Assembly (NCBI GenBank): GCA_944393665.1
Contig: CALYAX010000005.1
Location: forward strand, 20,611-84,610
DNA: 64,000 nucleotides
From: an uncultured Alphaproteobacteria bacterium
Lineage (GTDB): Bacteria; Pseudomonadota; Alphaproteobacteria; RF32; CAG-239
Direction: 5' to 3'
Part shown: piece by piece, positions 1-53,828 of the stretch
How positions within the stretch are numbered: the stretch's first letter is position 1
Layout: the number at the start of each line of letters is the position of its first letter
Made by a program: the position numbers and the translations under genes
The notes under the pieces: model-generated
Database searches by the model: none
What the model saw: only the letters and a program-made list of their open reading frames with translations
What the model was told of the DNA's origin: nothing

Positions 1-367
1 TGTTTTCACTGCCACCTATCTCGGAACAAGGTTTTGAAAGGCATTCAACGGCTTTGCCGTCGCAAAGCTGTGATGAAAGTTGAAACTCCCCGTTGCAAGT
101 CGTTTCATCATATTGATATTCCGAAGGACAGACACAAGCCGTATAACAATACAGAACAGGATTTTCCCGGACGAGTTTCAATTCGCCGCCAAGGCGTTTC
201 GGGGATTCACAAGAAGGAGAATAACCGAAACATTCCATAGGCGCATCAATCCGGTGATTAAGGTCAGCATTATTTTTCAGATAATCAGGAAGCCAGTATA
301 TCCCTGCCTGCACCGGGAAGCTAACCGCTATCATAACCCAAAAACATAATTTTGAGATGTATCTCAT
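1..367 (-). CDS. N-terminal fragment (approx. 122 codons; gene continues beyond window start) of a 4th paralog of the secreted cysteine-rich repeat protein family (MRYISKLCFWVMIAVSFPVQA/GIYWLPDYLKNN...CVCPSEYQY...CDGK..EC)
   Basis: Manual minus-strand translation from ATG 365..367 is stop-free to position 1. It has a signal-peptide-like N-terminus followed by the GIYWLPDYLK(N/D)N motif and Cys spacing shared with the paralogs at 41401, 43907 and 46234. GGAG lies 7 nt upstream of the ATG and a TATAAT (plus 403..408, minus strand) lies upstream. It is not in the ORF track because no stop codon falls inside the window. Confidence 0.6.
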   Translation of the reverse strand, partial: MRYISKLCFWVMIAVSFPVQAGIYWLPDYLKNNADLNHRIDAPMECFGYSPSCESPKRLGGELKLVRENPVLYCYTACVCPSEYQYDETTCNGEFQLSSQLCDGKAVECLSKPCSEIGGSEN

Positions 368-14877: not shown

Positions 14878-14879
14878 GG

Positions 14880-15104: not shown

Positions 15105-15120
15105 AATATGTTCCTTTCAT

Positions 15121-15642: not shown

Positions 15643-15645
15643 CGT

Positions 15646-29702: not shown

Positions 29703-30186
29703 AAAACCCTTCTATTCCTCTGTACGGTTTGATTATACAAAACACAGGTTACTAACTTCTTAAAAAGCAGGGGAATTTAATTTTTTATATTGTGTTTTAA
29801 AACAAAATGTATATGCTGATGGTGATTTGTATAAATTCTTGTATCGAATGAGGTCTTTTTTAAGGAAAATTAAAGGAAATTGCAAGACCAAAATTGGGTA
29901 CCGCCGTTTTATCATTGAGAAAAATGTGCATTATACAAAGACTTAGGCAACAAGATTTGGCCGGACGGGTTTTATGCGTGGCTGCTTGATTAGGCAATGA
30001 ACAAGTTCTACAAAACAGCTGCGGAATTGAAGAAAAAGACGTTAAAAGCAGGCGCAATGCGCTGATAAATCGTCATTACTGCGGCGAAGGAGAATCGCTC
30101 CTTCAGCCGAACGAATCTTTAAACACCCCTCCGGTAATTTAATTATCCCGTTCCGTAAACCGGAACGGCTGTGAGGAATGTAATTT
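29703..30186 (+). promoter_or_regulatory. Long (approx. 480 nt) structured 5' leader of rne, probably autoregulatory
   Basis: No ORF was found. Hairpin CGTTCCG-taaa-CCGGAACG sits just before the SD GAGGAA. Long rne leaders are typical. Confidence 0.4.
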
Positions 30187-34208: not shown

Positions 34209-34264
34209 ATTTTGTCCAAATTTGTGTTGCATTCGCAGGCAAGATAAATTATAATAAGCTTACT

Positions 34265-36250
34265 TTGAGCTTTTATAAGGACGAGGTTATGGCCTATTAC
34301 ACCCGCGAAGAAATCGATCAGTTTGTTGAAGAATATATTGCCCGGCAAAAGACGGAAGATTCCGCTTATGTTTCTGCCGAAAACGGGGCAGCCCAGGCTG
34401 AGCTTATCAAAAAATATGAGCGGACAGGGCGCCGGCAGTTTATTTTTAATCTTTATATGAAGGGCGGAATAGACGAGTTTACCCTGAAGCCTTCTGAACT
34501 CAGCACGATGGCCAAAGATTTCGGGTATGGCAAAGGTATATATGGTTACGGAGAAATCCCGAACTTTAATATCGGTGAATATAACGCGGTTACGAAGCGG
34601 CTTAACGAGGCCATGCTGAAAAAAATTGACGGTTTGGCCCCCGAAGCTTCAGCAGACCAGATTATACGCCAGGCTCCTTTTCTGGAGATGCTGCATGATA
34701 ACCGTTTCTCTTTAGACGAGCGTTACGAACCGGTTTTAGAACAGTTTAAAAAGAAGGTTGACGATTATTTTGCAGAGATTGACAGCTTAAGCCAGGGTCC
34801 GGAAAAAAATGAAAAAACCCGCGAAACGAAGCCGAAAACTACTTCTGAAAAAGTTCATTCCGGCGAAGAAAAATCCCGCCAAAAAACTCCGGCTGGGCGG
34901 GAGGTTTGGCTTAATGCGGAAGAGTTTAACCTGTTGCGCCGGCTGACAAGCCGGGAAGAAAAAGCCACTAACGGCGAATTGCTGCACAAAGCGGAAAAAG
35001 CCGCTTTGGAAATTGCCCAAAAGTACGAGCGGCAAAAACGTACAATCCTGGCGTCAAAAATCAGCGCCGCCTTTTTAAAACGGTTTGTGGTCATGGCCGT
35101 TTGCAATAAAAAAATCAATCAATGGAAATTGAACGAAGCTGACAAACAACTGATGCTGGACTTTATTTCTTCAACCATTAAAGTAAAAAAACTGGACGAA
35201 GAAAGGGCTGAACGGGTTAAAGGCTGGATTCAGGAAGCGATTGAAGGACGACGTGCAAAACCGGGACCCAAAGAGCGGAAAAAGATCTCCCGGAAAGAAA
35301 CCTCCGCCCGGGAACAACTGGTCGCCGTTATCAGTCTTGGCACTTCTAAAGCGGGAGATTTTCAACAGGAAGCGGAAAATGAAGAGACCGGCTCGCTTCC
35401 GGAAACCGTTATACCTGCCGGACGGCCCCGGGAAGATGATGACCGGATTTATGATGATGAAGACCAGCCGCAGGTTAATCCGTCTTCAAAAGATCAAACG
35501 GAAAAATCAGGGGAAGATGCTGCTGTTTCCAAAGATGATGAAGCGACTAAAAAGAAAGACAGGCAAATTTATTCTATTCGTTCGATTATAGAAAAAAATT
35601 TCACAGAGGAAAAAATTGCCGTCAAACCAGTGGTTTCTGTTGATAAAAAAGACGTCATTTACGATTTGTACCCGGTCGGAAAAACCGTTGACGAAGCTCC
35701 GGCCAACGGGCAGGTTATTTTCCGCAAACCCAATGATGCCATTCTCATTAGTGAAGATATCCATCATTATATCGGACTGGTTAAAACCCTATATGACAAC
35801 GGCTGCCGCAGCTTAAAAATCGGGGATCTTTCCGATGACAAAGAAAAAAATCTCCGTTTTAAGGCGGCGCTGGTGGTTGCGGGAGCCAGCAGGGGTATGC
35901 CGGTAGAGGGACTGGAAACCTCAGAACAGCTGGAAGAATTGAAAGCTTATAATCCCAAAATCGAACTTTTGATTGAAAAACGCAAACTGCGCCAGGAAAT
36001 GAAAGACCTTCGGACACAGCTGGAATCCGCCAGGAAGGAAGGTAAGGACACCGCGGCGCTGGAAGCACAAATTCAGGATAAAATTGCCGAAGGGATTGCA
36101 AAACATATTGAAAAAGGATCTGTCGACCCGGTTTCTTCCCAAGACCGGGCTGCACGCCTTAAAGCTGCGGAAAATGCGGGAAAAATAGCCAATCCGGTTC
36201 AGGCCGCGGTTATTCAAAAGGCCTTGAACAGGGTGCAGGGCAAATCATAA
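34265..36250 (+). CDS. hypothetical highly charged coiled-coil protein (661 aa; alternative start 34289)
   Basis: Lys/Glu-rich with no signal peptide and no recognised motif. Confidence 0.45.
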   Translation: MSFYKDEVMAYYTREEIDQFVEEYIARQKTEDSAYVSAENGAAQAELIKKYERTGRRQFIFNLYMKGGIDEFTLKPSELSTMAKDFGYGKGIYGYGEIPNFNIGEYNAVTKRLNEAMLKKIDGLAPEASADQIIRQAPFLEMLHDNRFSLDERYEPVLEQFKKKVDDYFAEIDSLSQGPEKNEKTRETKPKTTSEKVHSGEEKSRQKTPAGREVWLNAEEFNLLRRLTSREEKATNGELLHKAEKAALEIAQKYERQKRTILASKISAAFLKRFVVMAVCNKKINQWKLNEADKQLMLDFISSTIKVKKLDEERAERVKGWIQEAIEGRRAKPGPKERKKISRKETSAREQLVAVISLGTSKAGDFQQEAENEETGSLPETVIPAGRPREDDDRIYDDEDQPQVNPSSKDQTEKSGEDAAVSKDDEATKKKDRQIYSIRSIIEKNFTEEKIAVKPVVSVDKKDVIYDLYPVGKTVDEAPANGQVIFRKPNDAILISEDIHHYIGLVKTLYDNGCRSLKIGDLSDDKEKNLRFKAALVVAGASRGMPVEGLETSEQLEELKAYNPKIELLIEKRKLRQEMKDLRTQLESARKEGKDTAALEAQIQDKIAEGIAKHIEKGSVDPVSSQDRAARLKAAENAGKIANPVQAAVIQKALNRVQGKS

Positions 36251-39333: not shown

Positions 39334-40809
39334 ATGAAATATCTGATGACAGCCGCCGGTTTTGCAGCGGCATGGAGCCTGGCATTTTCTGCCGCAGCAC
39401 AAATGCTGGCAGAAGAAACTCCGGAAACCTCCGCAAATATTGAGGTCGTGAAATATCAGAGGCTGCCCTCGCTGGCGGATTTGGTGGAAAAACTGCAGCC
39501 GGCAGTGGTTAATATTTCTACCACCCATCAGCCGGGGAACGCCGAAGCCGATGAAAACATTCCGGGAATTGTCAGCGCCAATCCGGCAATCAGCGATTAT
39601 TTCAATCCGCACAACCCGCAGCAGCTGTCTTTGGGATCAGGCTTTATTATTGACAAGGACGGTTTTATTATCACCAACAATCATGTTATTGACGGTGCGG
39701 ACAGCATTGTTGTGACTTTGGCTGACAACAGCCAGTTTGACGCCGAACTGATTGGCCGGGACAGCAAAACAGACATTGCCCTGATTAAAATCAAAGCCGG
39801 AAAAGACCTTCCGACGGTTAAGCTTGGAAACTCGGATAAAATCCGTGTCGGCGACTGGATTGTTGCCATCGGAAATCCGTTTGGCCTCGGCGGGAGCGTT
39901 ACGGCCGGAATTGTTTCGGCAAAATCGCGGGATATTGAAGCCGGACCGTATGACAGCTTTATACAAACCGATGCCTCAATCAACCAGGGCAGTTCCGGCG
40001 GCCCGATGTTTAATATGGCCGGAGAGGTCATCGGTATTAATACCGCGATATTTTCAACCACCGGCGGGAATATGGGAATCGGCTTTGCAGTACCGATTAA
40101 CCTGACAGAGTTTGTCGTTAAGGAATTAAAGAGCAAAGGCAAAGTCGAGCGCGGCTGGATCGGGCTGAAAATACAGCCGAACACTTCGGATATTGCCGAC
40201 AGTCTGGGCCAGGACGAGCCTTACGGGGTGGTCATTTCGGCGGTGGAAGAAAATTCAGCAGCGCAGCAGGCAGGGATTGAAGCCGGCGATATTGTTACTT
40301 CTTTAAACGGCGAAACGATTACCGATGCCAGGGATTTTTCACGGCAAATTGCCGAAACCGCACCTGGAAGTTCTATCGAATTGAGCATTTGGCGCAACCG
40401 GCAGCAGCGTCAGGCCAAACTGCAGGTTATGAAAATGCCGGAAGAAAAAGCCGCTCCGGTTCAAACACCGGCAGCAACGGAAGAAAAGAAAAGCGGAACC
40501 GCCTTTATCACCGAAATCGGGATAGAAGCGGCAGAAATCAGTCCGGACATTATTCAGCGTTATCAGATTCCGGACGGACAGAGCGGTCTGGTTATTACCA
40601 AAGTTGACAGCGGCAGCGACGCCGAAATTAAAGGGCTGCGCGCCGGAAATCTGATTACCCAGATTGACAAGAAGGCCATCTATGACTTAAATGACCTGCG
40701 CACTTATTTAGATGAAGCCAAACAGGAGAATATGCGCCCGGTCCTGCTGCTGGTTTATGATCATGACCTCCCCCATTACGCAGCCGTAAAGTTAAAGAAA
40801 AATGACTAG
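39334..40809 (+). CDS. degP: periplasmic serine endoprotease DegP/HtrA family with two PDZ domains
   Basis: Catalytic triad context (H...D...GSSGGP) with two PDZ-like regions. Confidence 0.9.
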   Translation: MKYLMTAAGFAAAWSLAFSAAAQMLAEETPETSANIEVVKYQRLPSLADLVEKLQPAVVNISTTHQPGNAEADENIPGIVSANPAISDYFNPHNPQQLSLGSGFIIDKDGFIITNNHVIDGADSIVVTLADNSQFDAELIGRDSKTDIALIKIKAGKDLPTVKLGNSDKIRVGDWIVAIGNPFGLGGSVTAGIVSAKSRDIEAGPYDSFIQTDASINQGSSGGPMFNMAGEVIGINTAIFSTTGGNMGIGFAVPINLTEFVVKELKSKGKVERGWIGLKIQPNTSDIADSLGQDEPYGVVISAVEENSAAQQAGIEAGDIVTSLNGETITDARDFSRQIAETAPGSSIELSIWRNRQQRQAKLQVMKMPEEKAAPVQTPAATEEKKSGTAFITEIGIEAAEISPDIIQRYQIPDGQSGLVITKVDSGSDAEIKGLRAGNLITQIDKKAIYDLNDLRTYLDEAKQENMRPVLLLVYDHDLPHYAAVKLKKND

Positions 40810-41257
40810 AACAGACTTTTATCATTTACAGAGCCAGAATTTGGAAACCGTTTTGCCCAAACTGCTTGAAAAGGCTTACAGCACGGGAAAAAGCATTGTT
40901 GTCCGGGTGGGAACGGCAGAACGCGTTGAGTTTTTGAATGCGCTGCTGTGGACTTATAACGACCAGTCTTTTCTGCCGCACGGCTCATCAAAAGACGGCA
41001 ATGCCGAATTGCAGCCAATCTGGCTGACTTCCGGTTCCGACGTTCCCAATCTGGCCAGCCTGCTGTTTTTAGTGGACGGCGCCCGGGCGGACATGACGGA
41101 GCTGGAAAAGTTTGAACGTGTTTTTAATATTTTTGACGGCAATCTCCCGGAGGCCGTTGAACAGGCGCGGACTTTCTGGAAAGACCTGAAAGCTTCCGGA
41201 AACGAGTGCTTTTATTGGCAGCAGGATTCTTCCGGACGCTGGACGCAAAAAGCCTGA
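40802..41257 (+). CDS. holC: DNA polymerase III chi subunit
   Basis: 151 aa with DNA_pol3_chi-like N-terminus (TDFYHL...). Confidence 0.7.
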   Translation: MTRTDFYHLQSQNLETVLPKLLEKAYSTGKSIVVRVGTAERVEFLNALLWTYNDQSFLPHGSSKDGNAELQPIWLTSGSDVPNLASLLFLVDGARADMTELEKFERVFNIFDGNLPEAVEQARTFWKDLKASGNECFYWQQDSSGRWTQKA

Positions 41258-41307
41258 CCGTTTTATCTTAATCATCTCACCCTCCAAACGCACAATTCCG
41301 TTATTTA

Positions 41308-41336
41308 TTGAAAATTAATGTTTTTCATGTTATGAT
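41308..41336 (+). promoter_or_regulatory. sigma70-like promoter for the first cysteine-rich gene: TTGAAA - 17 nt - TATGAT
   Basis: Read directly. It is followed by a (GT)5 tract at 41341..41350 and a CAGGTACCTG palindrome at 41368..41377. Confidence 0.5.
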
Positions 41337-41400
41337 GTTGGTGTGTGTGTAGATCAGGTATCTATAACAGGTACCTGAATAAATTTATAGGTGGTGTGTG

Positions 41401-43764
41401 ATGTCTCAGCAAAAAAATTTTTGGCTGGCGTTAGCTGCATGTATCCTGCTGGGAGCAGGTACGGCAGCAGCCGGCATTTATTGGTTACCCGATTATTTAA
41501 AAGATAACGTAGATAGTAATCACCGGACGGATACCGATAAAGGTGGCGGCGACAATGTGGGCGGTACTTGCGAACAAACGTATGGACAGCTCAGCTCGTG
41601 CCCTTCCCCGAAAGTGATTGATAAAGAATACAACTATGGCAAAATAATGTGCTATAGCTGTAAGTGTCCCTCGTCCTATCAAATAACCTCCTGTTCTTCA
41701 GGCTGGCATGTTGCGGGGGTTCCGTGCAAAGAAGGAACCACCACCTATTATACCGGCTGCGAGGCGGATGCCTGCCCCGGCGGATTTACCGCGGGATTAA
41801 CCTGCGGCGCCGGTTATACCCGTGAAGTTAACGGAAAATCAGGTTCTCTGGATTGTGTCAGGTGCAATATTAAACCCTGTACCAGCGGTTATACGGCCGG
41901 CGTTGCCAATTGCAACAGCAAAACTTATCCTGCCGGATGGACATATGCCTCGTCCGGTTATTCAGGAGACAGTATCTGCGGGAAATGCACGGAAAAAACC
42001 TGCACTTCCGGATTTGAAAAAGGTTTGAACAACTGTTCCGGTAAAGCTCATGCCGAAGGCTGGACTTACAGCTCCTCCGGATATGCCGGAGACAGCGTCT
42101 GCGGCAAATGTACCGCCAAAACCTGTGCCTCAGGGTATCAGGCCGGCGTCAGCAATTGCTCCAGCACTGACAGCTGGACTTACAGCAGCAGCGGTTATGC
42201 AGGGGATTCCGTCTGCGGCCTTTGCACGGCCAAGTCCTGCGCCGACACATTTATTGCCGGTCTGGAAAACTGCAGCAACAAAGCTCATCCCAGCGGCTGG
42301 TCATATGTAAAAAGCCACAACAGCGGCAATACCGTATGCGGGAAATGCGATGTAAAAGCCTGTACCTCCGGTTCCACCAGCTGTGCCAGCGGCTTAATAC
42401 CGTCGGCCAACAGCTACTTTTCAGGCGACCAGCAATGTTATACCTGCCAAACCTGTGAAGAAATCGGCAAAAAAACCTGTAACGGCGGCTGTATTGCCAC
42501 ATCAGAGTGCTGCGGCGGCTGTGGCAGCGGAGAGGTTTGTAAAAACGGCACCTGCGTGGTTCAGACTTGTGAAAGCATTCTGACTGACCGCGGTTACGGT
42601 CTAAATACCAACCTGCCGAATAAAACCAATGTCATTATGAATGATATGACCTTTTCCAGAATGGAAGGCACAACTTACATCGGGATTGATAATTTTACCA
42701 GCATTTCACAATGCAGGGGAAAATCTCGTCCGAAACTGACATTTAATAAAGTCGGCAATCTTGACAATGCCAGCTTTACCAATCTGAATCTGTATATTAA
42801 AGCTTCAGACACCGGTAATATTGAAGTCAGAAACACGCTTACGCTCAAGAACACGGATGCGGACGTCACACCGACGACCATCAACATTCCGTCCGGGGCC
42901 GGCATTTCGATGACTGACTCAAAAATAGTGAAAAACGGCAGTGCCGCCAATACGCTTAATGACCGCGGATATATCTACTTCTACGGTACGTCGGAAGTTG
43001 GAAATGTCAATGTGTATGACTCCGGAAGAGCCGCATTTTATAAAAACGGCAAAGTCAATTCGATTACAACAAACGCCTCTTCTTCAAGTATCAGCGTCAG
43101 CAGCGGGGCCAAGTTGGAATCGACCGGGGCAATTACGATTACTTCCGGATCTTTGACGACAAGCGGAACCAGCAAATCCAACTCTAATATCAGCGGAAAA
43201 ACGTTAAGTGTTACGGGAACCCTGAAAGCTCCTTATACAAATATCAAATTGACCGACAACTTTATCGTCAACAAAAACGGCAGTTTTTCCGCCAACAATG
43301 CCTCGGTTACCGCAGCTTATGGAAAACTTTACAACGGAGCGTCAATTTCTATAGCCAATGCCGTTGATATGACATTCAAAAAGAAATTCTCCTGCGCTGT
43401 TTCTACAATAACGTTAGGAACTTGTGACTCTCTCAGCCCTGAGAATAACAATGATCACGGCATCTTCGCTTATGAATTTGAACTGGGACAGGTTGATGGC
43501 ACGGACAAGACCAGCAACACCCGTATTAATCTCTGCGGTGGTTCGAAGATGAGTTTTGTTACCGATACCAACACGTTAGCCAATTGCAGACTAAACCAGT
43601 ATAATAACGCCTCTATTTGTCTGGAATATTATGCCTGGTTTCAATGCAGCGGAAACGTTTCTCCCAATAATATGATGAACAGGGCTTTCATTGAGGGACA
43701 AACTGATTTTTCATGGTCAAATTGTCGCAAAAAATTCAAAGAAAGAAAAGATAAATGCAAGTAA
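41401..43764 (+). CDS. secreted cysteine-rich modular repeat protein, paralog 1 (787 aa): signal peptide, GIYWLPDYLK N-module, five ~41-aa A-type repeats (C.KC.AK.C..GY.AG..NC......GWTYSSSGYAGDS.CGKC), one 40-aa B-type 8-Cys module (CEEIGKKTCNGGCIATSECCGGCGSGEVCKNGTCVVQTCE), and an Asn/Ser/Thr-rich C-terminal region
   Basis: ORF with SD AGGTGG 6 nt before ATG 41401 and an own promoter and terminator. The repeat structure was read from the translation. Confidence 0.8.
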   Translation: MSQQKNFWLALAACILLGAGTAAAGIYWLPDYLKDNVDSNHRTDTDKGGGDNVGGTCEQTYGQLSSCPSPKVIDKEYNYGKIMCYSCKCPSSYQITSCSSGWHVAGVPCKEGTTTYYTGCEADACPGGFTAGLTCGAGYTREVNGKSGSLDCVRCNIKPCTSGYTAGVANCNSKTYPAGWTYASSGYSGDSICGKCTEKTCTSGFEKGLNNCSGKAHAEGWTYSSSGYAGDSVCGKCTAKTCASGYQAGVSNCSSTDSWTYSSSGYAGDSVCGLCTAKSCADTFIAGLENCSNKAHPSGWSYVKSHNSGNTVCGKCDVKACTSGSTSCASGLIPSANSYFSGDQQCYTCQTCEEIGKKTCNGGCIATSECCGGCGSGEVCKNGTCVVQTCESILTDRGYGLNTNLPNKTNVIMNDMTFSRMEGTTYIGIDNFTSISQCRGKSRPKLTFNKVGNLDNASFTNLNLYIKASDTGNIEVRNTLTLKNTDADVTPTTINIPSGAGISMTDSKIVKNGSAANTLNDRGYIYFYGTSEVGNVNVYDSGRAAFYKNGKVNSITTNASSSSISVSSGAKLESTGAITITSGSLTTSGTSKSNSNISGKTLSVTGTLKAPYTNIKLTDNFIVNKNGSFSANNASVTAAYGKLYNGASISIANAVDMTFKKKFSCAVSTITLGTCDSLSPENNNDHGIFAYEFELGQVDGTDKTSNTRINLCGGSKMSFVTDTNTLANCRLNQYNNASICLEYYAWFQCSGNVSPNNMMNRAFIEGQTDFSWSNCRKKFKERKDKCK

Positions 43765-43784
43765 AATAGCTTAACAGACAAAAC

Positions 43785-43816
43785 CTCCCCGGTGGCCTTT
43801 TCCGGGGAGTTTTTTG
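43785..43816 (+). terminator. Rho-independent terminator of paralog 1 (CTCCCCGG-loop-CCGGGGAG-T6)
   Basis: Read directly. It is duplicated at 46111..46142. Confidence 0.8.
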
Positions 43817-43839
43817 TGTCCAGCCCTCTAAACTATTTA

Positions 43840-43868
43840 TTGACTATCTTTGATTATTGATGTATTCT
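43840..43868 (+). promoter_or_regulatory. sigma70-like promoter for paralog 2: TTGACT - 17 nt - TATTCT
   Basis: Read directly. It is duplicated at 46167..46195. Confidence 0.5.
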
Positions 43869-43906
43869 GGAAGAAGTTCCGGAACAGCAATTATTGGAGA
43901 ACGGTC

Positions 43907-46090
43907 ATGAGAACAGTCTTTTTAGCCCTGGGTTTGCTAATCGCAAGCGCTTTGCCTGCTTACACCGCCTCTCCGCATAACACATACACACACAACACCG
44001 CCTTTGCTGTTTCAGAACAGTCTTACCGACTTGCCGGGATTTATTGGCTTCCGGATTATCTTAAGAATAATATCGATACCAATCGTCGTACAGATGTTGA
44101 CACCGGCGGTGGAGATATTCCGGTAGAATGCAAAAATTACGCGCCGGAATGTACATCGCCTCAAGTTCCCGGAGGTAAAACGGTGCGTATCAGCGATAAA
44201 TTCTGCCCTGTCGAATGCGTGTGTCCTGACAGTTACAAATACACATCGTCCAACTGCTCCGGAGACAAGAAACCTTCCGGCTCGGTTTGTGACGGCAAGT
44301 ATAACGACTGCCGCAGCCTGACTTGCGAAGAACGCGGTCTCAAAACCTGCGGATCCGCCTGTATCGCGGCTTCTGCCTGTTGCACGGATACGGACTGTGG
44401 CAGCGGCAAGAAATGCTCTTCCGGTTCCTGCATCGCCAAAAGTTGCGAGGAAATGGGGCAAAAAACCTGTAACGGAAGCTGTATCGCGGCTTCTGCCTGT
44501 TGCACGGATACGGACTGTGGCAGTGGCAAAAAATGTTCTTCCGGTTCCTGCATCGCCAAAAGTTGCGAGGAAATGGGACAAAAGACCTGTAACGGCAAGT
44601 GCATTGCCAAAACAGCCTGCTGTGTGAGCGGGGACTGTGCCAGCGGCATGAAATGCTTTGACAACATTTGCATTGCCCAAACCTGTGAAGAAAAAGGCTT
44701 AAAAACCTGTAACGGAAGCTGTATCGCGGTTTCTGCCTGTTGCATGGATACGGACTGCGGCAGTGGCAAAAAATGTTCTTCCGGTTCCTGTGTCGCTAAA
44801 AGCTGCGAGGAAATGGGTCAGAAAACCTGTAACAGCAAGTGCATTGCAAAAACTGCCTGCTGCACTGATACGGACTGCGGCAGCGGCAAGAAATGCCAAA
44901 ACGGATCCTGCGTAGATAGCCAGCCAAAATCAAAATGTTATGAAAAGCTTAAAGCTAAAGGTTATCTGGTAGCTGAAAACGGTGCCGAACTTGAAGCGAT
45001 TTTAAATCGCGCAGATACGCTTTCCCTGCCGGTTACTATTTATATTTTGGGAGATACTGTCATTGATAATTTTGAATTTTTCACCACCAATGGTGAAGTT
45101 TTTCCAATTCCGGTTATAAATTTGTACGATGCCTATAAAGCAGAAACAGACGGTTTGTGCTCTTTTAATGACGAAACTAATGACACCCGGATAAAGCTTC
45201 TGATGTCAAAATTAACTGTAAACAATAAATTCACCATGATGGGAATGTTATACAATTTTTTCCTTTCCTCTTTCCACATCAATATCTTTGATATTTTGTC
45301 CGGAGATGTTCATTTTTTTGATGCTGTCGGAAATTACGGCAGTGAGGCAACAATCAATAAACTGACAGAAAACTCCGGCGCTTTGTTTGGATCAACTGTT
45401 TATATTCAAGGTAAAGATGCCATATCCATGATTAATATTGACGAAATTATCAATGGAAACAGTTTAAATTTTAATTTGAATAATATCGCTTCGCTTACTG
45501 CTAATAAATTTATTGCGGAGGACTATGCACAGGCGCAGATTATAGCTGATAACGGTTTAGCAGACATCGGAACAATTACGCTTCCTAAACAAAATATATT
45601 TAATGTGACATTAAGCAACGAATCCCGGATGAGTGTGTCCAACATTACACCTCTAACAAAGACTAATTCAGCTTTTGACGTTATGATCAGAACGGGAAGT
45701 ATGTTTCGAGATGAAAGCGGAGCAGATGGTAAACCAATCGGAAATTATGTTTACCAGCCGGGAGTGACTTTCCATATGGAAATGAGCCGAAACTCCAACA
45801 ACAGCGACACAGGGAAGGCTTACAAGAATTGCATGACAACCTATACCTCTGTTGGCTATGAATCGTTTTGTACGCCAATAGCCGGCACCTATGCAGGAGG
45901 CTCTACTATTCCTGGAAATGCGATTCTTAATACCAGCTATAACACAACAAGCAGCTATTACGGAAATCCTCCGTGCACTTATAAAGATTGGAAACCGGCA
46001 TTTTCTGCAGATTTCAGTAATGTATTTAATACTGGAACGAATTATACGGCTTATTACAACTGTACTGTATACAATTTCTCAGCGTTGTAG
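43907..46090 (+). CDS. secreted cysteine-rich modular repeat protein, paralog 2 (727 aa): signal peptide, SPHNTYTHNTAF segment, GIYWLPDYLK N-module, five tandem 40-aa B-type 8-Cys modules (CEEMGQKTCNGSCIAASACCTDTDCGSGKKCSSGSCIAKS), and an Asn-rich C-terminal region
   Basis: Start chosen at MRTVFLALG (SD GGAGAA 43896..43901) by alignment with paralog 3. The ORF track start 43850 was rejected. Confidence 0.8.
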   Translation: MRTVFLALGLLIASALPAYTASPHNTYTHNTAFAVSEQSYRLAGIYWLPDYLKNNIDTNRRTDVDTGGGDIPVECKNYAPECTSPQVPGGKTVRISDKFCPVECVCPDSYKYTSSNCSGDKKPSGSVCDGKYNDCRSLTCEERGLKTCGSACIAASACCTDTDCGSGKKCSSGSCIAKSCEEMGQKTCNGSCIAASACCTDTDCGSGKKCSSGSCIAKSCEEMGQKTCNGKCIAKTACCVSGDCASGMKCFDNICIAQTCEEKGLKTCNGSCIAVSACCMDTDCGSGKKCSSGSCVAKSCEEMGQKTCNSKCIAKTACCTDTDCGSGKKCQNGSCVDSQPKSKCYEKLKAKGYLVAENGAELEAILNRADTLSLPVTIYILGDTVIDNFEFFTTNGEVFPIPVINLYDAYKAETDGLCSFNDETNDTRIKLLMSKLTVNNKFTMMGMLYNFFLSSFHINIFDILSGDVHFFDAVGNYGSEATINKLTENSGALFGSTVYIQGKDAISMINIDEIINGNSLNFNLNNIASLTANKFIAEDYAQAQIIADNGLADIGTITLPKQNIFNVTLSNESRMSVSNITPLTKTNSAFDVMIRTGSMFRDESGADGKPIGNYVYQPGVTFHMEMSRNSNNSDTGKAYKNCMTTYTSVGYESFCTPIAGTYAGGSTIPGNAILNTSYNTTSSYYGNPPCTYKDWKPAFSADFSNVFNTGTNYTAYYNCTVYNFSAL
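44324..44923 (+). repeat. Five in-frame tandem 120-bp coding repeats; copies 1 and 2 differ at only a few synonymous/near-synonymous sites
   Basis: Unit boundaries at 44324, 44444, 44564, 44684 and 44804, each beginning TGCGAGGAA/TGTGAAGAA (CEE). Confidence 0.9.
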
Positions 46091-46110
46091 AATCCTGTAA
46101 AAACTTCTAT

Positions 46111-46142
46111 CTCCCCGGTGGCCTTATCCGGGGAGTTTTTTT
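46111..46142 (+). terminator. Rho-independent terminator of paralog 2 (duplicate of the 43785 terminator)
   Basis: CTCCCCGG-tggccttat-CCGGGGAG-T7. Confidence 0.8.
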
Positions 46143-46166
46143 GTGTCCAGCCCTCTAAACTATTTA

Positions 46167-46195
46167 TTGACTATCTTTGGTTATTGATATATTCT
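46167..46195 (+). promoter_or_regulatory. sigma70-like promoter for paralog 3: TTGACT - 17 nt - TATTCT
   Basis: Read directly. Confidence 0.5.
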
Positions 46196-46233
46196 GGAAA
46201 TAGTTCCGGAACAGTAATTATTGGAGAATGGTC

Positions 46234-48589
46234 ATGAGAACAGTCTTTTTAGCCCTGGGTTTGTTTATTGCAAGCACTTTGCCTGCTCTTGCCGCCTCTC
46301 CGCATAACACATACACACACAACACCGCCTTTGCTGTTCCGGAACAGTCTTACCAACTCGCAGCAACCTGGTTCCTTCCCGACTGGCAGGCCGGGCTTGT
46401 TTCACGTACCGATACCGCTCCCGCCGGGTCCGGTGATCCTTCCCTTTCCGATTCCGCCTGCCTGACGACTTATAATCTCTTCTCCGCTTGTGTCGCTCCG
46501 CAGACCATCAAAAAGACATATAATTTCGGTAAGCTCACCTGTTATGACTGTGTCTGTCCCTCTTCTTATCAATATACTTCTTCCAACTGTTCAAACGGAT
46601 ATACGCTGGCCGGAGGGTCCTGCAACGGTAAATATCTCCAGTGCGATCCCTCGGCCTGTCCGTCAGGGTACACAGCCGGAAAGACCTGCGCCTCCGGTTA
46701 TGACCGTGAGGTGAACGGCAAATCCGGCTCCCAGGACTGTGCCAGATGCGTGGCCAAGGGCTGCCCCTCAGGCTATTCTGCAGGTTTGTCTAACTGCAAC
46801 GGGCAATCTTATACGGAGGGGTGGACCTATTCTTCCAACGGTTATGCCGGTAATAGTATCTGCGGCAAGTGCACCGCCAAGTCCTGTGCCCCGGGGGTAT
46901 ACTGCCGGGCTGGCCAACTGTAACGGACAGTCCCAGCCGTCGGGATGGACTTACAGTTCTAATGGGTATGCGGGAAACTCGGTCTGCGGGAAATGTACCG
47001 CCAAGTCCTGCCCGGCCGGATACAGCGCCGGGGTCACCCAGTGCAGCAACACCACAAGCTGGACCTATGGTTCCAACGGCTATGCCGGAAACAGTATCTG
47101 CGGCAAATGTACGTCCAAAGACTGTGCTTCGGGCTATACGGCGGGTTTAGCCAACTGTAACGGGAAAGCGCACCCGGCAGGATGGAGTTACACCGCCGGA
47201 ACGCCCAGCGGCAACACGGTTTGCGGCAAGTGCACCGCCAAAAGCTGCACGGCGGGGAGCACCAGCTGCAACAGCTCAACCCAGAACGCGACGGCCAACG
47301 GCTATTATGCAGGGGACAGTGTTTGTTACACCTGCGTCGCCAAGACCTGCGAACAAATGGGGCAGAAAACCTGCAACGGATCCTGTATTGCCACTTCCGA
47401 ATGCTGCGGCGGATGTCCTGCCGGGCACGAATGTAACGATGGAACCTGTATTCAGACAAAATGCGAGGCCGGGTATATTTTTTATTCCGACGGAACGTGT
47501 AATTCGGATTATTTAGCAGATAAGACTCCGGTCGGCATAGTGGCTGACCCTGAACACCGGCTTTTGATAGACTTAAAAGGAATTAATAATATTTCGTTAT
47601 TGGCGACAATAAGCAATATTAATATTCCGATGATAGGCAATGAATACACGCGTCCGATTTCATTTAACGGCTATTCCAATACAACAATTCTGGCAAGATA
47701 TACACCTGCTGCAACCACATGCCTGACCAAAAACCGTGACGGCATCATGAACAACTGGTATATTCCCGGCAGCGGGGAAATCCTTTCCGTTGGTAAAAAT
47801 TATCAGGCTGTTTATGCCGGACTGAATAAGCTGGCCGATTACGGCTTGGCAGACCCTAATCTGGGCTATTTATGGAGTTCCGATGAAGTATACAGCAGCG
47901 ATGAATTGGGACTGGTCATGAATCCGGCTGACCGTCAGTTAACTGCGAGACCGAGAATGGCAATGGCTGCCAATCTCCGCTGTATGGCCCATTATCTTTG
48001 CTCTGCCGCAAGCGGCTGTGAACTCCCCTGCCCGTTTGAATCTTCTGGTGACAGCAGTAACGGCGTGAATGGCTACACCAGGAAAAGTATTTCCTGCGAC
48101 GACGGATGGCTGGTCCAATCTTATCCGTTCAATTCCGCCTGCAAACGCTGTATCAATGATACCGTAGAAGGAAGCAGCAGCGGGGGAAACCAACCCGGCA
48201 AAACCGAATGTCAGGTTCTGGACTCAATGTATTATAGCAACGGTAAATATTTTTGTACTACCGCAGCCTCGGCTAATGGCACCTACATGGGAAAAATAGG
48301 AAAGAAAGGGCTGGTTATTTTGGGACAAATCGGTTCGACAATGTCTGTTTCCGATGCCGAGCAACAATGCAACAACTATACCAGAGGGACTTTCAGCAAC
48401 TGGCGGATTGTCTATACCAGCGACTCTGACAAATGGTCATCTATTATCTGCAATGTTTGCCACCCCTTTGGCAAAAGCGGCTCCCTATCAATGTATTACG
48501 GGGGTTACGGCTGGAATACCGCCACTTCTTATGACCGAAACGGCACTTTGTATTGTACGCATTCGTACAGCAATGTTTATCGGGAATAA
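46234..48589 (+). pseudogene. secreted cysteine-rich modular repeat protein, paralog 3 (~785 aa if read through), interrupted by a +1 frameshift in a C4G5 tract at 46889..46897. Its 5' end matches paralog 2 and its A-repeat/B-module body matches paralog 1, so it is chimeric.
   Basis: ORF 46228..46923 ends CTAKSCAPGVYCRAGQL* while the overlapping frame (46739..48589) continues PRGYTAGLANCNGQSQPSGWTYSSNGYAGNS... Removing one G from GGGGG restores ...SCAPGYTAGLANCNG... Confidence 0.75.
46893..46897 (+). repeat. G5 homopolymer (preceded by C4) at the frameshift point of paralog 3
   Basis: gcc ccggggg tat at 46888..46900. Confidence 0.9.
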
Positions 48590-48600
48590 GCTGTGGTGAG

Positions 48601-48628
48601 AAACGCCCCGGACTTAGCCGGGGCGTTT
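48601..48628. terminator. Bidirectional rho-independent terminator between paralog 3 (+) and the 48630..50261 gene (-)
   Basis: AAACGCCCCGG-acttag-CCGGGGCGTTT. Confidence 0.75.
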
Positions 48629-48629
48629 C

Positions 48630-50261
48630 TTATTTGGCAAGTTTTTCCAAATCGCTGGGAAAGTTGACATCAATAAATTTGTCAGTGTCTTTTTCTTCCA
48701 GCAGGGTCAGATAGTCGGAATGTTCAACGAAAACCGGACGGATATCGGCATTCTCAGGAACGATATCAGCCTGGGGATAAAGCGCCTTGCTCCATAAAAC
48801 CGGATTTTTCTTGACCCCCTGATGGGCAAACATAATCACTTGTTTTTCCGCACCGGGCCGGCAGGCATCAATCAGACGGTTTAAATCGTCAGCTTCAATG
48901 CCGGGCATATCGGCGGGCAGAAGAATCGCCCCGTCGCAAAAACCGGGAACAGAGGAAAGTCCCAATGCAATTGAGGTTTTAATACCTGAACGGTAGGCCG
49001 GATTGTAAATGACATTGATATCCAGATTTTCCAATTCCGCTGCCATTTCATCATCATGATAACCGGTTACCACAAAAACCGGACGGGCATTGGAAGCCAT
49101 CGCGGCCCGCACCGCCCGCATAAACAAAGGCTTTCCGTCTGGAAGCGGAACCATCAGCTTATTACGCCCGCTGCGGCTTCCTACTCCGGCGGCAAGAATC
49201 ACAGCTCCGACTGAAGCGGAAGCACCGCTGCGGGCAGACGGCGCCGGAGAAATCAAACGTGCGGCAGCCTCCGGATCAAGCAGTTGTCCCTGCGGTAATT
49301 CCGGCAAAGGGATACGGGTGAATTCTTCATGATTTAATTTTTCCGTCAACAGGGCTTTTTTGATACACCGGTTGATCAACCCGCTGTCAGCGGCGGCATA
49401 ATGATACGGCAGCACAATGATTTTGGTCTGGCGCTTCTCCGCAATCAGCAAATCTGAAGCACCAAATTGAGGCAAACGGGTCAACGACGGGCTGTCGGCA
49501 ATTTTGGCGATGGCCGTGGGAATAATATCCTGTAAACAAGACGTGCGAAGCGGTGAAAGAACAAAAACAACGTCCAACCGGGCACGGAGAGCCGTTTCAA
49601 GAGTATCGGCCACAGCGTCAACCGTGTACTCCGTATTATATTCCTGTAAAAAATCGAATCCGAATCCCTGAAAGTCTTTGACCAATTTTTTTACCATTGC
49701 CGTAAAGCGCCTGGTTTCGGCGGCAGTATTCTGCTGACGGCCGTAAATCAGCCCGGTACGGTATTGTCCCGGCTTAACAACGCTCAACAGTTCGGTATTA
49801 CCTGACAAACGAAAAACAATATCGTCAACCAGACTACTGCTGACAAAAGGAACAGTGAGTTCCAAAGAAGCAATGATTTCCCCGCTTTTTACAACCGCAA
49901 ATGACTCTATGGTGTTAAGCACCAGCAAATCATTAAAACGATTAAACTTCTGAACCCGGTCGGTAATCGTATAAAAAATGCCGTCTTCCGCAGCAACAAT
50001 TTTACAGACGTTATTATCAATAGCATAGGAAACACCCGCACCGCAAAGACGCGCGACAATCATCCCCAAAGCAGTAGCAGCGCTGAGGTCATCGTCTTCT
50101 ATTCTGGCGCCGAAGACGGTTTTGATGTCGTGCATTTTAAAAATGAGAATATCTTCCGCAGTCAGTTCATGGCCGGCAGGATAAACTTTTGCCCCAAGTT
50201 TGATTTCATTAAATAATCGGACCTGTTTAGCCTGACTGAGCGGAAATTCCTGATATTTCAT
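48630..50261 (-). CDS. two-domain protein: N-terminal ~330 aa (possibly a molybdopterin-binding-like domain) fused to a C-terminal MobA/MocA-like nucleotidyltransferase domain
   Basis: C-terminal AVILAAGVGSRSGRNK matches the MobA-like NTP_transf_3 signature. The N-terminal identity is uncertain. Confidence 0.5.
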   Translation of the reverse strand: MKYQEFPLSQAKQVRLFNEIKLGAKVYPAGHELTAEDILIFKMHDIKTVFGARIEDDDLSAATALGMIVARLCGAGVSYAIDNNVCKIVAAEDGIFYTITDRVQKFNRFNDLLVLNTIESFAVVKSGEIIASLELTVPFVSSSLVDDIVFRLSGNTELLSVVKPGQYRTGLIYGRQQNTAAETRRFTAMVKKLVKDFQGFGFDFLQEYNTEYTVDAVADTLETALRARLDVVFVLSPLRTSCLQDIIPTAIAKIADSPSLTRLPQFGASDLLIAEKRQTKIIVLPYHYAAADSGLINRCIKKALLTEKLNHEEFTRIPLPELPQGQLLDPEAAARLISPAPSARSGASASVGAVILAAGVGSRSGRNKLMVPLPDGKPLFMRAVRAAMASNARPVFVVTGYHDDEMAAELENLDINVIYNPAYRSGIKTSIALGLSSVPGFCDGAILLPADMPGIEADDLNRLIDACRPGAEKQVIMFAHQGVKKNPVLWSKALYPQADIVPENADIRPVFVEHSDYLTLLEEKDTDKFIDVNFPSDLEKLAK

Positions 50262-50343
50262 TCCGGTTACCCCTTTATTTTTGATATAAGGTTATTTTAG
50301 CAAAATGCCACCAAATAAAAAGTTAATTTTTTGCTCTTTAAAC

Positions 50344-50365
50344 AAAAAGGGAGCAAAAGCTCCCC
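50344..50365 (-). terminator. Rho-independent terminator for the small lipoprotein gene (GGGAGC-tttt-GCTCCC followed by a T-run on the minus strand)
   Basis: Read directly. Confidence 0.6.
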
Positions 50366-50366
50366 A

Positions 50367-50540
50367 TTAATCTTTTTTAATGATGTCCCTGGTATCTTTT
50401 ACCGTGCGGTGGACATCATAGGTGACACGTTCCAGTTTCTGGGTGGTGCGTAACGAAGCGTCCAAAACTTCTACCCAGGAACCACAAGAACTGAACAACC
50501 AAGCCAGCCCTATCAACAGAATAACTTTTTTTGTTTTCAT
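50367..50540 (-). CDS. small lipoprotein (57 aa: MKTKKVILLIGLAWLFSSCGSWVEVLDASLRTTQKLERVTYDVHRTVKDTRDIIKKD), absent from the ORF track (below the 60-aa cut-off)
   Basis: Manual translation. Signal peptide plus lipobox-like LFSSC with its own terminator. There is no obvious SD, which lowers confidence. Confidence 0.45.
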   Translation of the reverse strand: MKTKKVILLIGLAWLFSSCGSWVEVLDASLRTTQKLERVTYDVHRTVKDTRDIIKKD

Positions 50541-50708
50541 ATTTTTATTTTGAGATATCTATTTATAAGTAATTGAATTTTGTTTTGTAATCTAACATAG
50601 AAATTATTTCGTTTCAAGCTTTTAGACAAAAGAAAAATAAACTTTACCTGTTGACACGGCAAATAATTTAATTAGAGAGTAAGGTATTATTCCCTTTTAT
50701 GTGAAGAT

Positions 50709-51939: not shown

Positions 51940-51983
51940 TATTTATACTTAATTATATTCTGTTGTTTATCTGGAGGGAAATC

Positions 51984-53828
51984 ATGCCGGAAAATGATAT
52001 TTTTGAGGGAATTGGTTATCAGGATGTAAATGATTATCTGTCATCTGCAGTCAATATCCGTGAATCAAAAGTTTATCAGTTATTCAGCAATCTGCGCGAA
52101 GCCTCGCGCAATGCCGGGACTTTTGAAGAAGCCGAAAAGCTTGCGATTGGACTTAACCGGTTTGCCATGCAGCTTGATCCCAAAAATGAAAAACATCGCA
52201 ACTTTTATAATAATTTGGAAGGGGCTTTTATTGACAATCTTTCCAAAGAATTCAGGGAATGTTCTTTTTATGACAACTGCCCGACAGTTAATAAAATAAA
52301 TTATATCTTACTCTCCGGCTTTTCGACCTATACTAAACTGGCGCAAATATCTTCTTTGAATAAAATTCCGCCGCAATTGCAAGAAAATCTGCTGGCTGCG
52401 CCATACAGCACTTTTGAAAACACGCTCCCGTTTATTTACAATGCGGAATGTAATGATTCCCTGCGAAATAAAATTAATGATACCCTTGTTTACCAATCCA
52501 ATCACTCTGCCAATAACTTACTTGCAAATCTGAAAACTAAATTCCATAACTTTAAGACATTGAAAAAATTAGATGACAGTATTTTCAAGGAAAAGGTTAA
52601 AGAAATTCTGGAAAAAGATGCCTTGTTGTATAAGTTAACGCAGCATAACGGCGTACTCCCCGATACTTTATCCGGGCGCTTCGACTTGTTTTTAAAGACC
52701 GGCGATTTTCAAACGGACAAAACAACCCAAAGACTGGCAAACGAGCTCGCTTTTGCAGACATCCGCGACGGCAAAGCCGAAAAACTCGGGGCCGATAAAA
52801 TAGCCGTCCTGTTGGCAAGCGATGTTCATTTGGGATATTTAACCGAAAAAATCAGCCTTGAAAAGCTTAATCAAGTTTTTAACCATGCCAACAAACACGG
52901 TTTAAATATTGCCCGAACCGTCCGGGATAAATTTTTTAATCAGGAACTGGCTGCCGCAAAGGACTGGAATAAAATTTTGAACATGACCCGGTATAAAGAC
53001 GGCTGCAGCGGTTCCCGTTCATCAGTTAAAGACTATCAAACCCGCTTTGAGATTGCAGCACAGAAAATAACCGAAATAAAAAACAGCCAGGAATATGCCT
53101 TTATGACGGCTGATATTCAAGAATATGAAAAGAGGGCTGCCGGGTTGAAAGAAATATATGAAAACAGCAACCGTTTGTCCGGCTGTATCGGTTATCTGGA
53201 ACGGATTCAGGCACTGAGTGAAAATGTTTTAAAAAATTTCAGCTCACAGAAAGACGCCGGCCTCTCCGGAAAAGATCTGGAGAAAGCTGCCGGCAATGCC
53301 CTCAATAATAACTTTGAGCCGCTGGCGCACACAAACGCCAGGCTCCCTTTTCTGTTTGGCAGGAAAGAAGAAAAAAGACGCCAGCAAGCTTTGAACAACG
53401 CCGTTGATCAGTTTAACAAAATCCTCAAAGAACTTTCCGCCGACAAAAACGCAAACCGGCAGATTAAGAACACACTGTTAAGTTATTCAGGAAAGCTGCT
53501 TGAAAAATCTACCCTGGAAGCACTTAAAAACAGTTTTCAAGAAACACGGCAAGAGATCAACCGGAGAACGGATGACTTAAATTATATTGAGAAAAATTGG
53601 AATATACGCCAGAAAAAAATGACTCTTGAAGAAATCGCCGCTTCAGAAAAGGCGATAAGGCAAAATGCTGATGCTGCCGGTAAAGAAAAAGACCGCCGTT
53701 TGTCGGAAGCAAGAAACAGACTGAAAGAAAAAACCGGCATTGATACAGCGGAAGGCAAGTCTGGCGCCGTGAAAGCGGATAAAATTGCGGCGGAAGTTAT
53801 CCGCGCCAAGAAAAGCAACGGCAAATAG
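51984..53828 (+). CDS. hypothetical Lys/Asn-rich protein (614 aa from MPENDIFEG; ORF track gives 51963), AT-rich gene with no signal peptide
   Basis: Long ORF with its own promoter and terminator. Its composition is clearly lower in GC than its neighbours. Confidence 0.55.
   Translation: MPENDIFEGIGYQDVNDYLSSAVNIRESKVYQLFSNLREASRNAGTFEEAEKLAIGLNRFAMQLDPKNEKHRNFYNNLEGAFIDNLSKEFRECSFYDNCPTVNKINYILLSGFSTYTKLAQISSLNKIPPQLQENLLAAPYSTFENTLPFIYNAECNDSLRNKINDTLVYQSNHSANNLLANLKTKFHNFKTLKKLDDSIFKEKVKEILEKDALLYKLTQHNGVLPDTLSGRFDLFLKTGDFQTDKTTQRLANELAFADIRDGKAEKLGADKIAVLLASDVHLGYLTEKISLEKLNQVFNHANKHGLNIARTVRDKFFNQELAAAKDWNKILNMTRYKDGCSGSRSSVKDYQTRFEIAAQKITEIKNSQEYAFMTADIQEYEKRAAGLKEIYENSNRLSGCIGYLERIQALSENVLKNFSSQKDAGLSGKDLEKAAGNALNNNFEPLAHTNARLPFLFGRKEEKRRQQALNNAVDQFNKILKELSADKNANRQIKNTLLSYSGKLLEKSTLEALKNSFQETRQEINRRTDDLNYIEKNWNIRQKKMTLEEIAASEKAIRQNADAAGKEKDRRLSEARNRLKEKTGIDTAEGKSGAVKADKIAAEVIRAKKSNGK

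Follow-up and report, generated by a model that had tools for sequence, protein, structure and literature searches.

A tandem locus for cysteine-rich modular proteins, candidate adhesins of uncultured gut Alphaproteobacteria

What are three large, cysteine-rich proteins, encoded side by side in an uncultured gut bacterium, built to do? The question is raised by a stretch of 64,000 nucleotides (hereafter the window; contig CALYAX010000005.1 of assembly GCA_944393665.1) from an alphaproteobacterium of the RF32 lineage, in which three plus-strand genes, g1, g2 and g3, stand in tandem, with holC (40802-41257) on one side and an NTP_transf_3 gene in convergent orientation (48630-50261) on the other. 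Bacteria of the RF32/CAG-495 type are common but uncultured in the human and animal gut, and almost nothing is known, to our knowledge, about their interactions with the environment; the human gut genus CAG-495 has been reported together with the order RF32 and the family CAG-239. On balance, we lean towards reading g1-g3 as paralogues of an unannotated, Sec-exported family of modular extracellular proteins in uncultured gut Alphaproteobacteria, most likely adhesins that are displayed on the surface or released.

An earlier note on this DNA had described a tandem trio of large cysteine-rich proteins of exported type. We confirmed it from the open reading frames (ORFs), the signal-peptide features and the cysteine counts, with the corrections given below. 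Gene g1 occupies positions 41401..43764 (787 residues from the ATG, or 788 if started at 41398), and g2 positions 43907..46090 (727 residues, with a longer TTG-started ORF from 43850). Gene g3 (46234..48589, its ORF being open also from 46228) is a frameshifted member of the family, about 784 residues long when intact, which is present here as a 5' ORF of 231 residues (46228/46234..46923) and a 3' ORF of 616 residues (46739..48589).

The N-termini of all three proteins look like those of proteins exported by the Sec route, judging by their signal-peptide features. A basic n-region precedes a hydrophobic core of 12 residues with a mean Kyte-Doolittle value of 2.1-2.6, and small residues are found at positions -3 and -1 of the candidate cleavage sites of g1 (AAA/G; predicted signal peptide 41401-41472) and g3 (ALA/A). 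The obvious site of g2, AYTA/S, has a Tyr at -3, and the position of cleavage is less clear there. Beyond the signal-peptide core there is no further transmembrane segment in g1, g2 or g3, since no stretch of this kind occurs after residue 40. Residues 11-14 of g1 (41431-41442) form a lipobox-like L-A-A-C inside the hydrophobic core, with more hydrophobic residues and the AAA/G site following it, and LAAC or LVAC is conserved in the g1 orthologues P0001 and P0002. The signal peptides of g2, g3 and most relatives have no cysteine at all (the lipobox being [LVI][ASTVI][GAS]C).

Downstream of the signal peptide lies a short motif, which reads GIYWLPDY in g1 (41473-41496) and g2 (44036-44059) and ATWFLPDW in g3. 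The sequence GIYWLPDYLK had been thought common to all three; this is true of g1 and g2, but g3 has the variant ATWFLPDWQAG. In g2 and g3 the motif is preceded by a spacer of 22 residues (SPHNTYTHNTAFAV...), and in all three it is followed by an acidic G-G-G-D/G-S-G-D patch and then by a cysteine-rich N-module (C..C.CP..Y.Y....C). Over the whole family the hallmark can be written as A-[GAKR]-x-[YWT]-[WYF]-L-P-D-[YWF]. Nearly all of the listed members have it, and it stands either right after a site of the signal-peptidase type or past a spacer of about 25 residues. We modelled g1 with AlphaFold2 from an alignment of 28 sequences (mean predicted local distance difference test score, pLDDT, of 70). 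In this model residues 1-55 are predicted to be disordered (pLDDT ~30-36), so the motif would be a linear peptide outside any folded domain. We infer that this conserved N-terminal peptide is a sorting, anchoring or retention tag, which would hold the N-terminus at the envelope.

The N-module is followed by two kinds of cysteine-rich repeats. In g1 it is joined by about six type A units of 33-41 residues with four cysteines each (~41563-42447 with the N-module) and a single type B unit (42454-42567). The layout of g3 is signal peptide and spacer, motif, N-module, about six type A units, one type B unit and a head. Gene g2 has no type A unit; its N-module leads into five type B units (44324-44923), each of exactly 40 residues with eight invariant cysteines. 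Type A follows the pattern C..GY.AG...C...GW.Y...GY.G...CGKC, and the type B array of g2 is visible in the DNA as a 120-nucleotide period repeated 4.5 times with 73% matches (TRF, 44359-44896). Both repeat types, which the earlier note had assigned as arrays to each protein, do exist, but arrays of type A and type B do not occur together in any of the three genes. The repeats are far beyond chance, because a homologous family exists.

In the g1 model, the N-module and the type A units have a pLDDT of 72-87, and each type A unit is predicted to be a long beta-hairpin with CGKC in its second strand; the type B unit (57-67) is followed by a low-confidence linker of 55 residues. The AlphaFold2 model of g2 has a pLDDT of 77-88 over the N-module and the five type B units, with two hairpins in each of the latter. 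The likeness of type B to eukaryotic disulfide modules came down to marginal matches and does not extend to membership of a family. In the PDB, the type B units of g2 weakly matched the LDL-A repeats of LRP1 (phmmer, 2fyj, E 3e-4) and a hevein-type lectin (E 0.05-0.08), and for the second half of the unit a profile matched the Dumpy DPY module 1oig_A at E 1.1e-3 over a short alignment of 20 residues. The DPY module is a disulfide-stapled hairpin of about 21 residues with the pattern C-x2-[ND]-x-[DE]-C-x5-6-C-x4-C. The LDL-A repeat (PF00057), at about 40 residues, has six cysteines and an acidic Ca2+ cluster, D-x-S-D-E, whereas type B has eight invariant cysteines, no acidic cluster and no Pfam match. 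The type A profile had no match in the PDB, and neither type reached the threshold in Pfam.

Cysteine accounts for 6.5-7.4% of the residues, with totals of 51 in g1, 54 in g2 and 56 in g3, and 50, 54 and 56 in the respective mature parts. Obligate pairing predicts even counts, and of 129 non-redundant family members, 104 have an even count past the motif (binomial p 1e-12). The cysteine counts thus behave as pairs, an indirect sign of disulfide bonds. The same even counts, the CxxC in each type A unit and a host that is probably anaerobic could also be reconciled with zinc-ribbon-like, metal-binding modules that sequester or sense metal in the periplasm. We consider this the least probable of the explanations weighed here, and a highly unlikely one. 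Sites made up of four cysteines throughout are excluded for g1 and g2, because 50 and 54 are not multiples of four. Furthermore, there is one CxxC per type A unit and it lies within a modelled beta-strand, no metal-site family of the His/Cys kind was matched in Pfam, signal peptides are predicted, and relatives carry bona fide extracellular disulfide modules (Ephrin_rec_like, cEGF and TNFR-like).

The C-terminal heads differ from gene to gene. The head of g1 (~42730-43761) was modelled as a right-handed beta-helix, confidently so over residues ~450-680 (pLDDT 80-93), and the model ends in a short, low-confidence tail that contains cysteine. The head of g3 (~47462-48586) consists of two modules with the signatures G.I.YSD, TP.G.V, W[YF].P..GE.,.WSS and.R C.A.Y. 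A profile of 11 head modules of this type matched residues 379-483 of PDB entry 4eps_A at a marginal E of 4.4e-4, over a region that takes in the motifs WY[VI]PS.GEL and YWSS. The Pfam family PF07603 (Lcl_C) matched three of the 11 aligned head homologues (best E 1.3e-5) and four of 60 distant family members (up to 3.8e-16). From these profile matches the g3 head would be a pair of divergent Lcl_C/DUF1566 modules and lectin-like. The orphan head of g2 (44941-46087) opens, as read by eye, with a helix-strand cap, 'AELEAIL...I.IL.D', that is common to other family heads and to adhesive domains of the Pectate_lyase_5 type, and it is probably beta-helical. A beta-rich character and an abundance of Asn, Ser and Thr, which had been ascribed to all the C-terminal regions, could be demonstrated for the g1 head but not for the others.

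A related head module was also seen outside the family. The locus L002 (GCA_964312815.1, CAYBWE010000042.1, 2099-4261, minus strand) encodes a flagellin of 721 residues with a central, beta-helix-like insert of about 450 residues. Over its first 116 residues this insert, which is the exposed central domain, shares 46% identity with head modules in a member of the family, L004 5929-8502. By this alignment, flagellin and the cysteine-rich family have a head module in common in a related metagenome-assembled genome (MAG).

A beta-helix of the pectate-lyase-like class might also be that of a polysaccharide lyase or glycosidase, in which case the heads would degrade mucin or dietary glycans for feeding and the stalk would be a spacer. 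We find this unlikely. None of the ~75 members scanned matched a Pfam family of the CAZy type, the sole related hint being the 'adhesive' Pectate_lyase_5, and the g3-type heads are lectin-like rather than enzymatic.

How far does the family extend? With HMMER, a word-indexed set of 5.8 billion proteins yielded 42 relatives for g1 and 39 for g2. Not one of them carries a name or a precomputed Pfam domain, and no source has a name for any of these ~80 relatives. Scans of g1-g3 and ~75 relatives against Pfam and NCBIfam gave nothing above the cut-off for the genes of the window, and searches of the PDB with the whole protein sequences gave nothing at threshold, only the weak LDL-A and hevein matches for g2. 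The motif is not mentioned in the searchable literature, in which nothing relevant on cysteine-rich proteins of RF32 bacteria was found either. The family may therefore be called undescribed, as had been surmised. A profile of the motif and the N-module, run exhaustively against 1.84 billion representatives of clusters at 50% identity, matched ~195 clusters at E<=1e-3, 54 of them at E<=1e-10, and the match was always N-terminal. Among species-representative genomes the family is confined to uncultured gut Alphaproteobacteria and unclassified 'proteobacterium' MAGs. Its carriers include 'Proteobacteria bacterium CAG:495' and MAGs from mouse, Hadza and Brazilian cohorts, and a single MAG often has several loci.

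In addition to g1-g3, the window holds a fourth paralogue at its left edge (2..367, minus strand, start at 367). The gene runs out of the window there, so that only its N-terminal 122 codons are seen; it reads MRYISKLCFWVMIAVSFPVQA and then GIYWLPDYLKNN... before the N-module, and an extended -10-like TGTGTATAAT lies ~45 nucleotides upstream. A fifth paralogue, P0013, adjoins secDF in the genome of a related strain (L001). Searches of viral contigs gave no confirmed family match, and a phage origin was rejected on this ground, though a prophage remnant lies 23 kb away in the window (13339-17915, minus strand). This remnant encodes a portal protein at 13339-14877 (Head-tail_con, E 4.5e-130) and, at 16359-17915 on the minus strand, an ORF that weakly resembles a terminase; we saw no link between it and the cysteine-rich genes.

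In 60 distant members that have the family N-terminus, the recognisable domains are of the binding type only, namely Lcl_C, PKD, Ephrin_rec_like (1.3e-25), DUF285, BspA-type leucine-rich repeats, TNFR-like, cEGF and the Pectate_lyase_5 'adhesive domain'. Type-A-like repeats are also present in P0057 (1704 residues), whose C-terminus, ending in ...GLRYNF, looks by eye like an outer-membrane barrel; Pfam detects no autotransporter domain in it. An adhesin-type role, one of the two put forward in the earlier note, would fit the predicted head folds and the binding-type domains of the distant relatives. The other, a toxin role, finds no support in the Pfam scans, in which no toxin or enzyme domain appeared among the ~75 members. 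A conserved N-terminus with hypervariable C-termini that recombine is indeed what polymorphic toxins or bacteriocin-like effectors would have, with the conserved part serving delivery and the variable part directed against competitors. Yet nuclease, peptidase and pore-forming domains are as absent as toxin domains, no small immunity-like ORF follows any of the genes, there is no T5, T6 or T7 delivery domain or partner gene, and the heads have folds of the adhesin or lectin type. We regard toxins of this kind as very unlikely.

Comparison of strains shows how the repertoire varies. Each of the intergenic spacers g1-g2 and g2-g3, together with the first ~45 codons of the gene downstream, belongs to a direct repeat of 255 bp that comprises the terminator, promoter-like site, ribosome-binding site, signal peptide and spacer codons. 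Its two copies (43785..44040 and 46111..46365, plus strand) are ~93% identical and form the left and right boundaries of a ~2.3-kb cassette with g2 (44028..46353). The cassette is present in the window and in the related assemblies L017, L018 and L019. It is missing from L001, a strain that is 98.9% identical on both flanks and lacks the cassette exactly between the repeats. Gene g2 is itself a mosaic, as its signal peptide and spacer resemble g3 (84% identity) more than g1 (25%), whereas its motif region is closer to g1 (71%) than to g3 (29%). The g1 head recurs (58-79%) on P0003 behind an unrelated N-terminal half, and between g1 and its orthologue P0002 (81% identity overall) identity is lowest in the distal third of the head (59% versus 82-98% elsewhere).

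In L018, the g2 and g3 heads are 100% identical to those of the window and the stalks 95-98.5% identical (44550-48620). The genes that flank them (48650-50636 and beyond) are 80% (NTP_transf_3), 84.5% (mutS), 73.6% (orf621) and 92.6% (rpsI) identical, and the drop is sharp, just past the g3 terminator. Such a pattern is due either to a recent transfer of the cassettes between diverged lineages or to a chimeric metagenome contig. In L017 (ENA ERZ24773224, 1-9870, 3.7x coverage), g2 and the 5' part of g3 with its frameshift are followed by the P0013 head and downstream genes, and the native P0013 locus (L020) has the order yajC-secD-secF-P0013-Flavin_Reduct-two OMP_b-brl genes. We rejected L017 as independent proof of the frameshift and of a head swap, as it is probably a low-coverage join of the g3 and P0013 loci through their shared stalk. 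Nevertheless, the presence or absence of the cassette and the segment identities make the paralogue expansion and mosaicism, both claimed before, and the between-strain difference in copy number real. The variation documented at the locus is recombinational, a form that the earlier note had not proposed.

Swappable heads on a cysteine-rich stalk could also provide antigenic diversity in a variable, protease-resistant surface coat, comparable to the variant surface proteins (VSPs) of Giardia or to an S-layer, that would protect the cell and help it to evade immunity or phage. The high cysteine content (6.5-7.4%) with CxxC-containing repeats, the four paralogues of the window, to which the secDF locus adds at least one, the hypervariable heads and shuffled segments, the cassette that comes and goes between strains and the frameshift in one copy are all compatible with it. 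However, nothing points to mutually exclusive expression or to a mechanism of switching, and each gene has a promoter-like site of its own. The heads are identical across five assemblies, contrary to ongoing antigenic diversification, Pfam VSP is unmatched and a membrane anchor is absent. The coat is, in our view, improbable, although it ranks first among the alternatives, ahead of secreted glycanases, a slippage contingency locus, polymorphic toxins and metal-binding proteins in this order.

The frameshift of g3 bears on the slippage contingency locus. A single extra G in CCCCGGGGG (46889..46897) splits the gene, and deleting one base produces a frame of 786 residues. The tract, which adjoins C4, has five Gs (G5) in the window and in L017 but four (G4) in L001, L018 and L019, three other assemblies, where the intact 784-residue orthologues of g3 (P0047, P0049) have CCCCGGGG. 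The frameshifted allele thus looks real, but the assemblies that have it are two at most and related to each other. The tracts of slippage contingency loci are long homopolymers or short tandem repeats, typically of 7 or more units. In the contingency locus that had been envisaged here, slippage in the homopolymer would toggle g3 and changes in repeat number would tune the other genes, and both the G5/G4 difference and the 120-nucleotide tandem repeat of the type B array could be cited in its favour. But a tract of 4-5 nucleotides is far shorter than those that slip at useful rates, and type B units that are just 73% alike in DNA are poor substrates for slippage. The two alleles come from different assemblies; both G5 assemblies have the study prefix BRZ in common, and since L017 is probably chimeric they are not independent and may represent one population. 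The contingency reading hence finds little room, and we judge phase variation by slippage to be quite unlikely.

Sequences around the genes are suggestive of separate transcription. Promoter-like sites precede g1 (41308..41336, TTGAAA-17-TATGAT, TG-extended, a consensus match only), g2 (43840..43868, TTGACT-17-TATTCT) and g3 (46167..46195, TTGACT-17-TATTCT), the latter two being likewise matches to the consensus; across the region such hexamers are no more numerous than in shuffled sequence. Each of the three stop codons has a hairpin within ~20-30 nucleotides. The one after g1 (43786..43816, plus strand) is terminator-like, with the arms CTCCCCGG and CCGGGGAG separated by 9 nucleotides and followed by U6 (folding energy, dG, -19.5 kcal/mol; z -3.4). 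The one after g2 (46113..46143, plus strand) belongs to the same sequence family and is followed by U7 (dG -16 kcal/mol). A GC-rich hairpin (48600..48632; dG -29 kcal/mol on the plus and -25 kcal/mol on the minus strand) lies between the convergent g3 and NTP_transf_3 genes and serves as a common hairpin for both, and the identity break between lineages falls just past it. After g1 and g2 the next promoter-like site follows, and the 142-bp spacers contain just the hairpin and this site. The hexamers and hairpins of which the earlier note spoke are present; that each gene is an independent transcription unit would follow from motifs only. No Rfam family and no tRNA turned up when the window was scanned for them.

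Taken together, the findings would be in agreement with the following course of events. After removal of the signal peptide, the short, disordered and near-universal N-terminal motif, often at the predicted mature N-terminus, would tag the protein to the envelope. The tandem beta-hairpin modules (the N-module, type A with four cysteines and type B with eight cysteines in two hairpins) would form a disulfide-stapled, protease-resistant stalk, which in turn would present a C-terminal, ligand-binding head. For g1 this would be a right-handed beta-helix, for g3 a pair of C-type-lectin-like Lcl_C modules and for g2 an orphan domain, probably beta-helical too. Recombination would diversify the repertoire through gain and loss of cassettes between direct repeats, shuffling of segments between paralogues and transfer from lineage to lineage.

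Several points weigh against adhesins of this design. The support is entirely computational. The g2 head has a pLDDT below 50, which makes its model unusable, and on its own it has no homologue among the 5.8 billion proteins. A Foldseek search of the PDB with the g1 and g2 models returned nothing below E 0.07. The sequence of g3 itself has no Pfam match that reaches the threshold, so that the lectin-like assignment of its head, made through homologues, is transitive. As g3 is frameshifted here, the locus may have no more than two functional genes. Even cysteine numbers suit some metal sites too. The observations on L018 and L017 could be artefacts of chimeric metagenome assembly. Finally, no candidate gene for a secretion or anchoring partner recurs beside family genes at 16 loci, and for this reason the role of the motif can be no more than inferred.

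If adhesins they are, the family gives bacteria of the RF32/CAG-495 type a multi-copy set of probable adhesins made of modules that no database names, with heads that are candidates for recognising a host glycan, mucus or a partner cell. The near-universal N-terminal peptide could be a handle for finding the machinery of surface display. The stalk modules would represent a new instance of dense disulfide architecture in a proteobacterium and may be of interest for protease-stable scaffolds. The identity of cassettes across diverged lineages, if true, would be a clear gene-specific sweep in the gut. A bolder proposal goes further. Should the motif prove to be a novel signal for sorting or anchoring, it would imply an undescribed route of display in diderms, independent of a barrel, a lipid anchor or an adjacent partner, and the family would be a bacterial counterpart of the cysteine-rich variant surface proteins of protozoa, disulfide-armoured and head-swappable, its cassettes sweeping between gut lineages that are ~8-26% divergent. 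We offer this as speculation and think it doubtful as it stands.

Other features of the window are recorded here for completeness. Two ORFs on the plus strand, 51963-53828 (621 residues) and 34265-36250 (661 residues), have no Pfam match. The former is rich in Lys and Glu, and no other gene diverges as fast between lineages (73.6% DNA identity in L018). Kinship among the Lys/Glu-rich orphan ORFs near family loci was considered and rejected, as these two and an ORF of 744 residues beside P0013 are unrelated. The AT skew is unusually high (0.18-0.25) at 30001-36000, a stretch that covers the RNase E gene (30187-32856) and the next two genes.

Which known systems does the family resemble? Lcl of Legionella pneumophila is a surface-associated 'lollipop' adhesin secreted by the type II secretion system, and its DUF1566 head is C-type-lectin-like and binds sulphated glycosaminoglycans (PMC11162425). 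The proteins described here are similarly lollipops of the Sec-exported type, neither barrel nor, as it seems, lipoprotein, in which a short N-terminal region leads into a long, repetitive stalk with a globular head at the C-terminus; in the g3 type this head would be a divergent member of the same domain, g3 itself being below the Pfam threshold. In contrast to the collagen triple helix of Lcl, their stalk is made of cysteine-rich hairpins, and g1, g2 and g3 have no G-X-Y repeats. There is no evidence of trimerisation here, the N-terminus has the LPD motif in place of the Lcl helix, and the heads of g1 and g2 are of other kinds.

The right-handed beta-helix predicted for the g1 head recalls the passengers of type V adhesins (Vag8, TibA, UpaB, Ag43, Hap and pertactin, as well as HMW1 and EtpA of the two-partner secretion type), but the identity is ~10%, and the g1 helix is C-terminal on a cysteine-rich stalk, not threaded through a barrel of its own. 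Neither the C-terminal translocator barrel of type Va (PF03797; no Pfam match at E<=1) nor the TPS domain (PF05860) of two-partner secretion was detected in g1-g3, and as to a TpsB partner, no non-family gene recurs in the flanks of the 16 loci. 4EPS (BovFim1C), a type V pilus protein of Bacteroides ovatus, is a reference for adhesive pilus components (bioRxiv 10.1101/2024.11.15.621889). The g3-type head matches its lectin-like C-terminal domain, marginally as said above, and both come from gut bacteria, 4EPS being an adhesive component; unlike 4EPS, g3 has no pilin fold, lipoprotein precursor or pilus operon. In their ~20-40-residue units with 4-8 cysteines, arranged in tandem and extracellular, the stalks are like the disulfide modules of eukaryotic type (LDL-A, DPY, hevein and Ephrin_rec_like/TNFR-like). 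The VSPs of Giardia (PF03302), in which a CXXC-rich ectodomain is held by a C-terminal transmembrane helix that ends in a conserved cytoplasmic tail, are a functional analogue, from which g1-g3 differ in having no Pfam match to them and no C-terminal transmembrane anchor.

By analogy, therefore, the family would seem closest to Lcl in function and architecture, and the g1 head closest to the type V passengers. It is a member of neither group, because it has no barrel, TPS domain or collagen stalk and only g3 would have an Lcl_C domain, a divergent one. Modular secreted adhesins are already known; what is new in this family is the modules of the stalk and the hallmark at the N-terminus.

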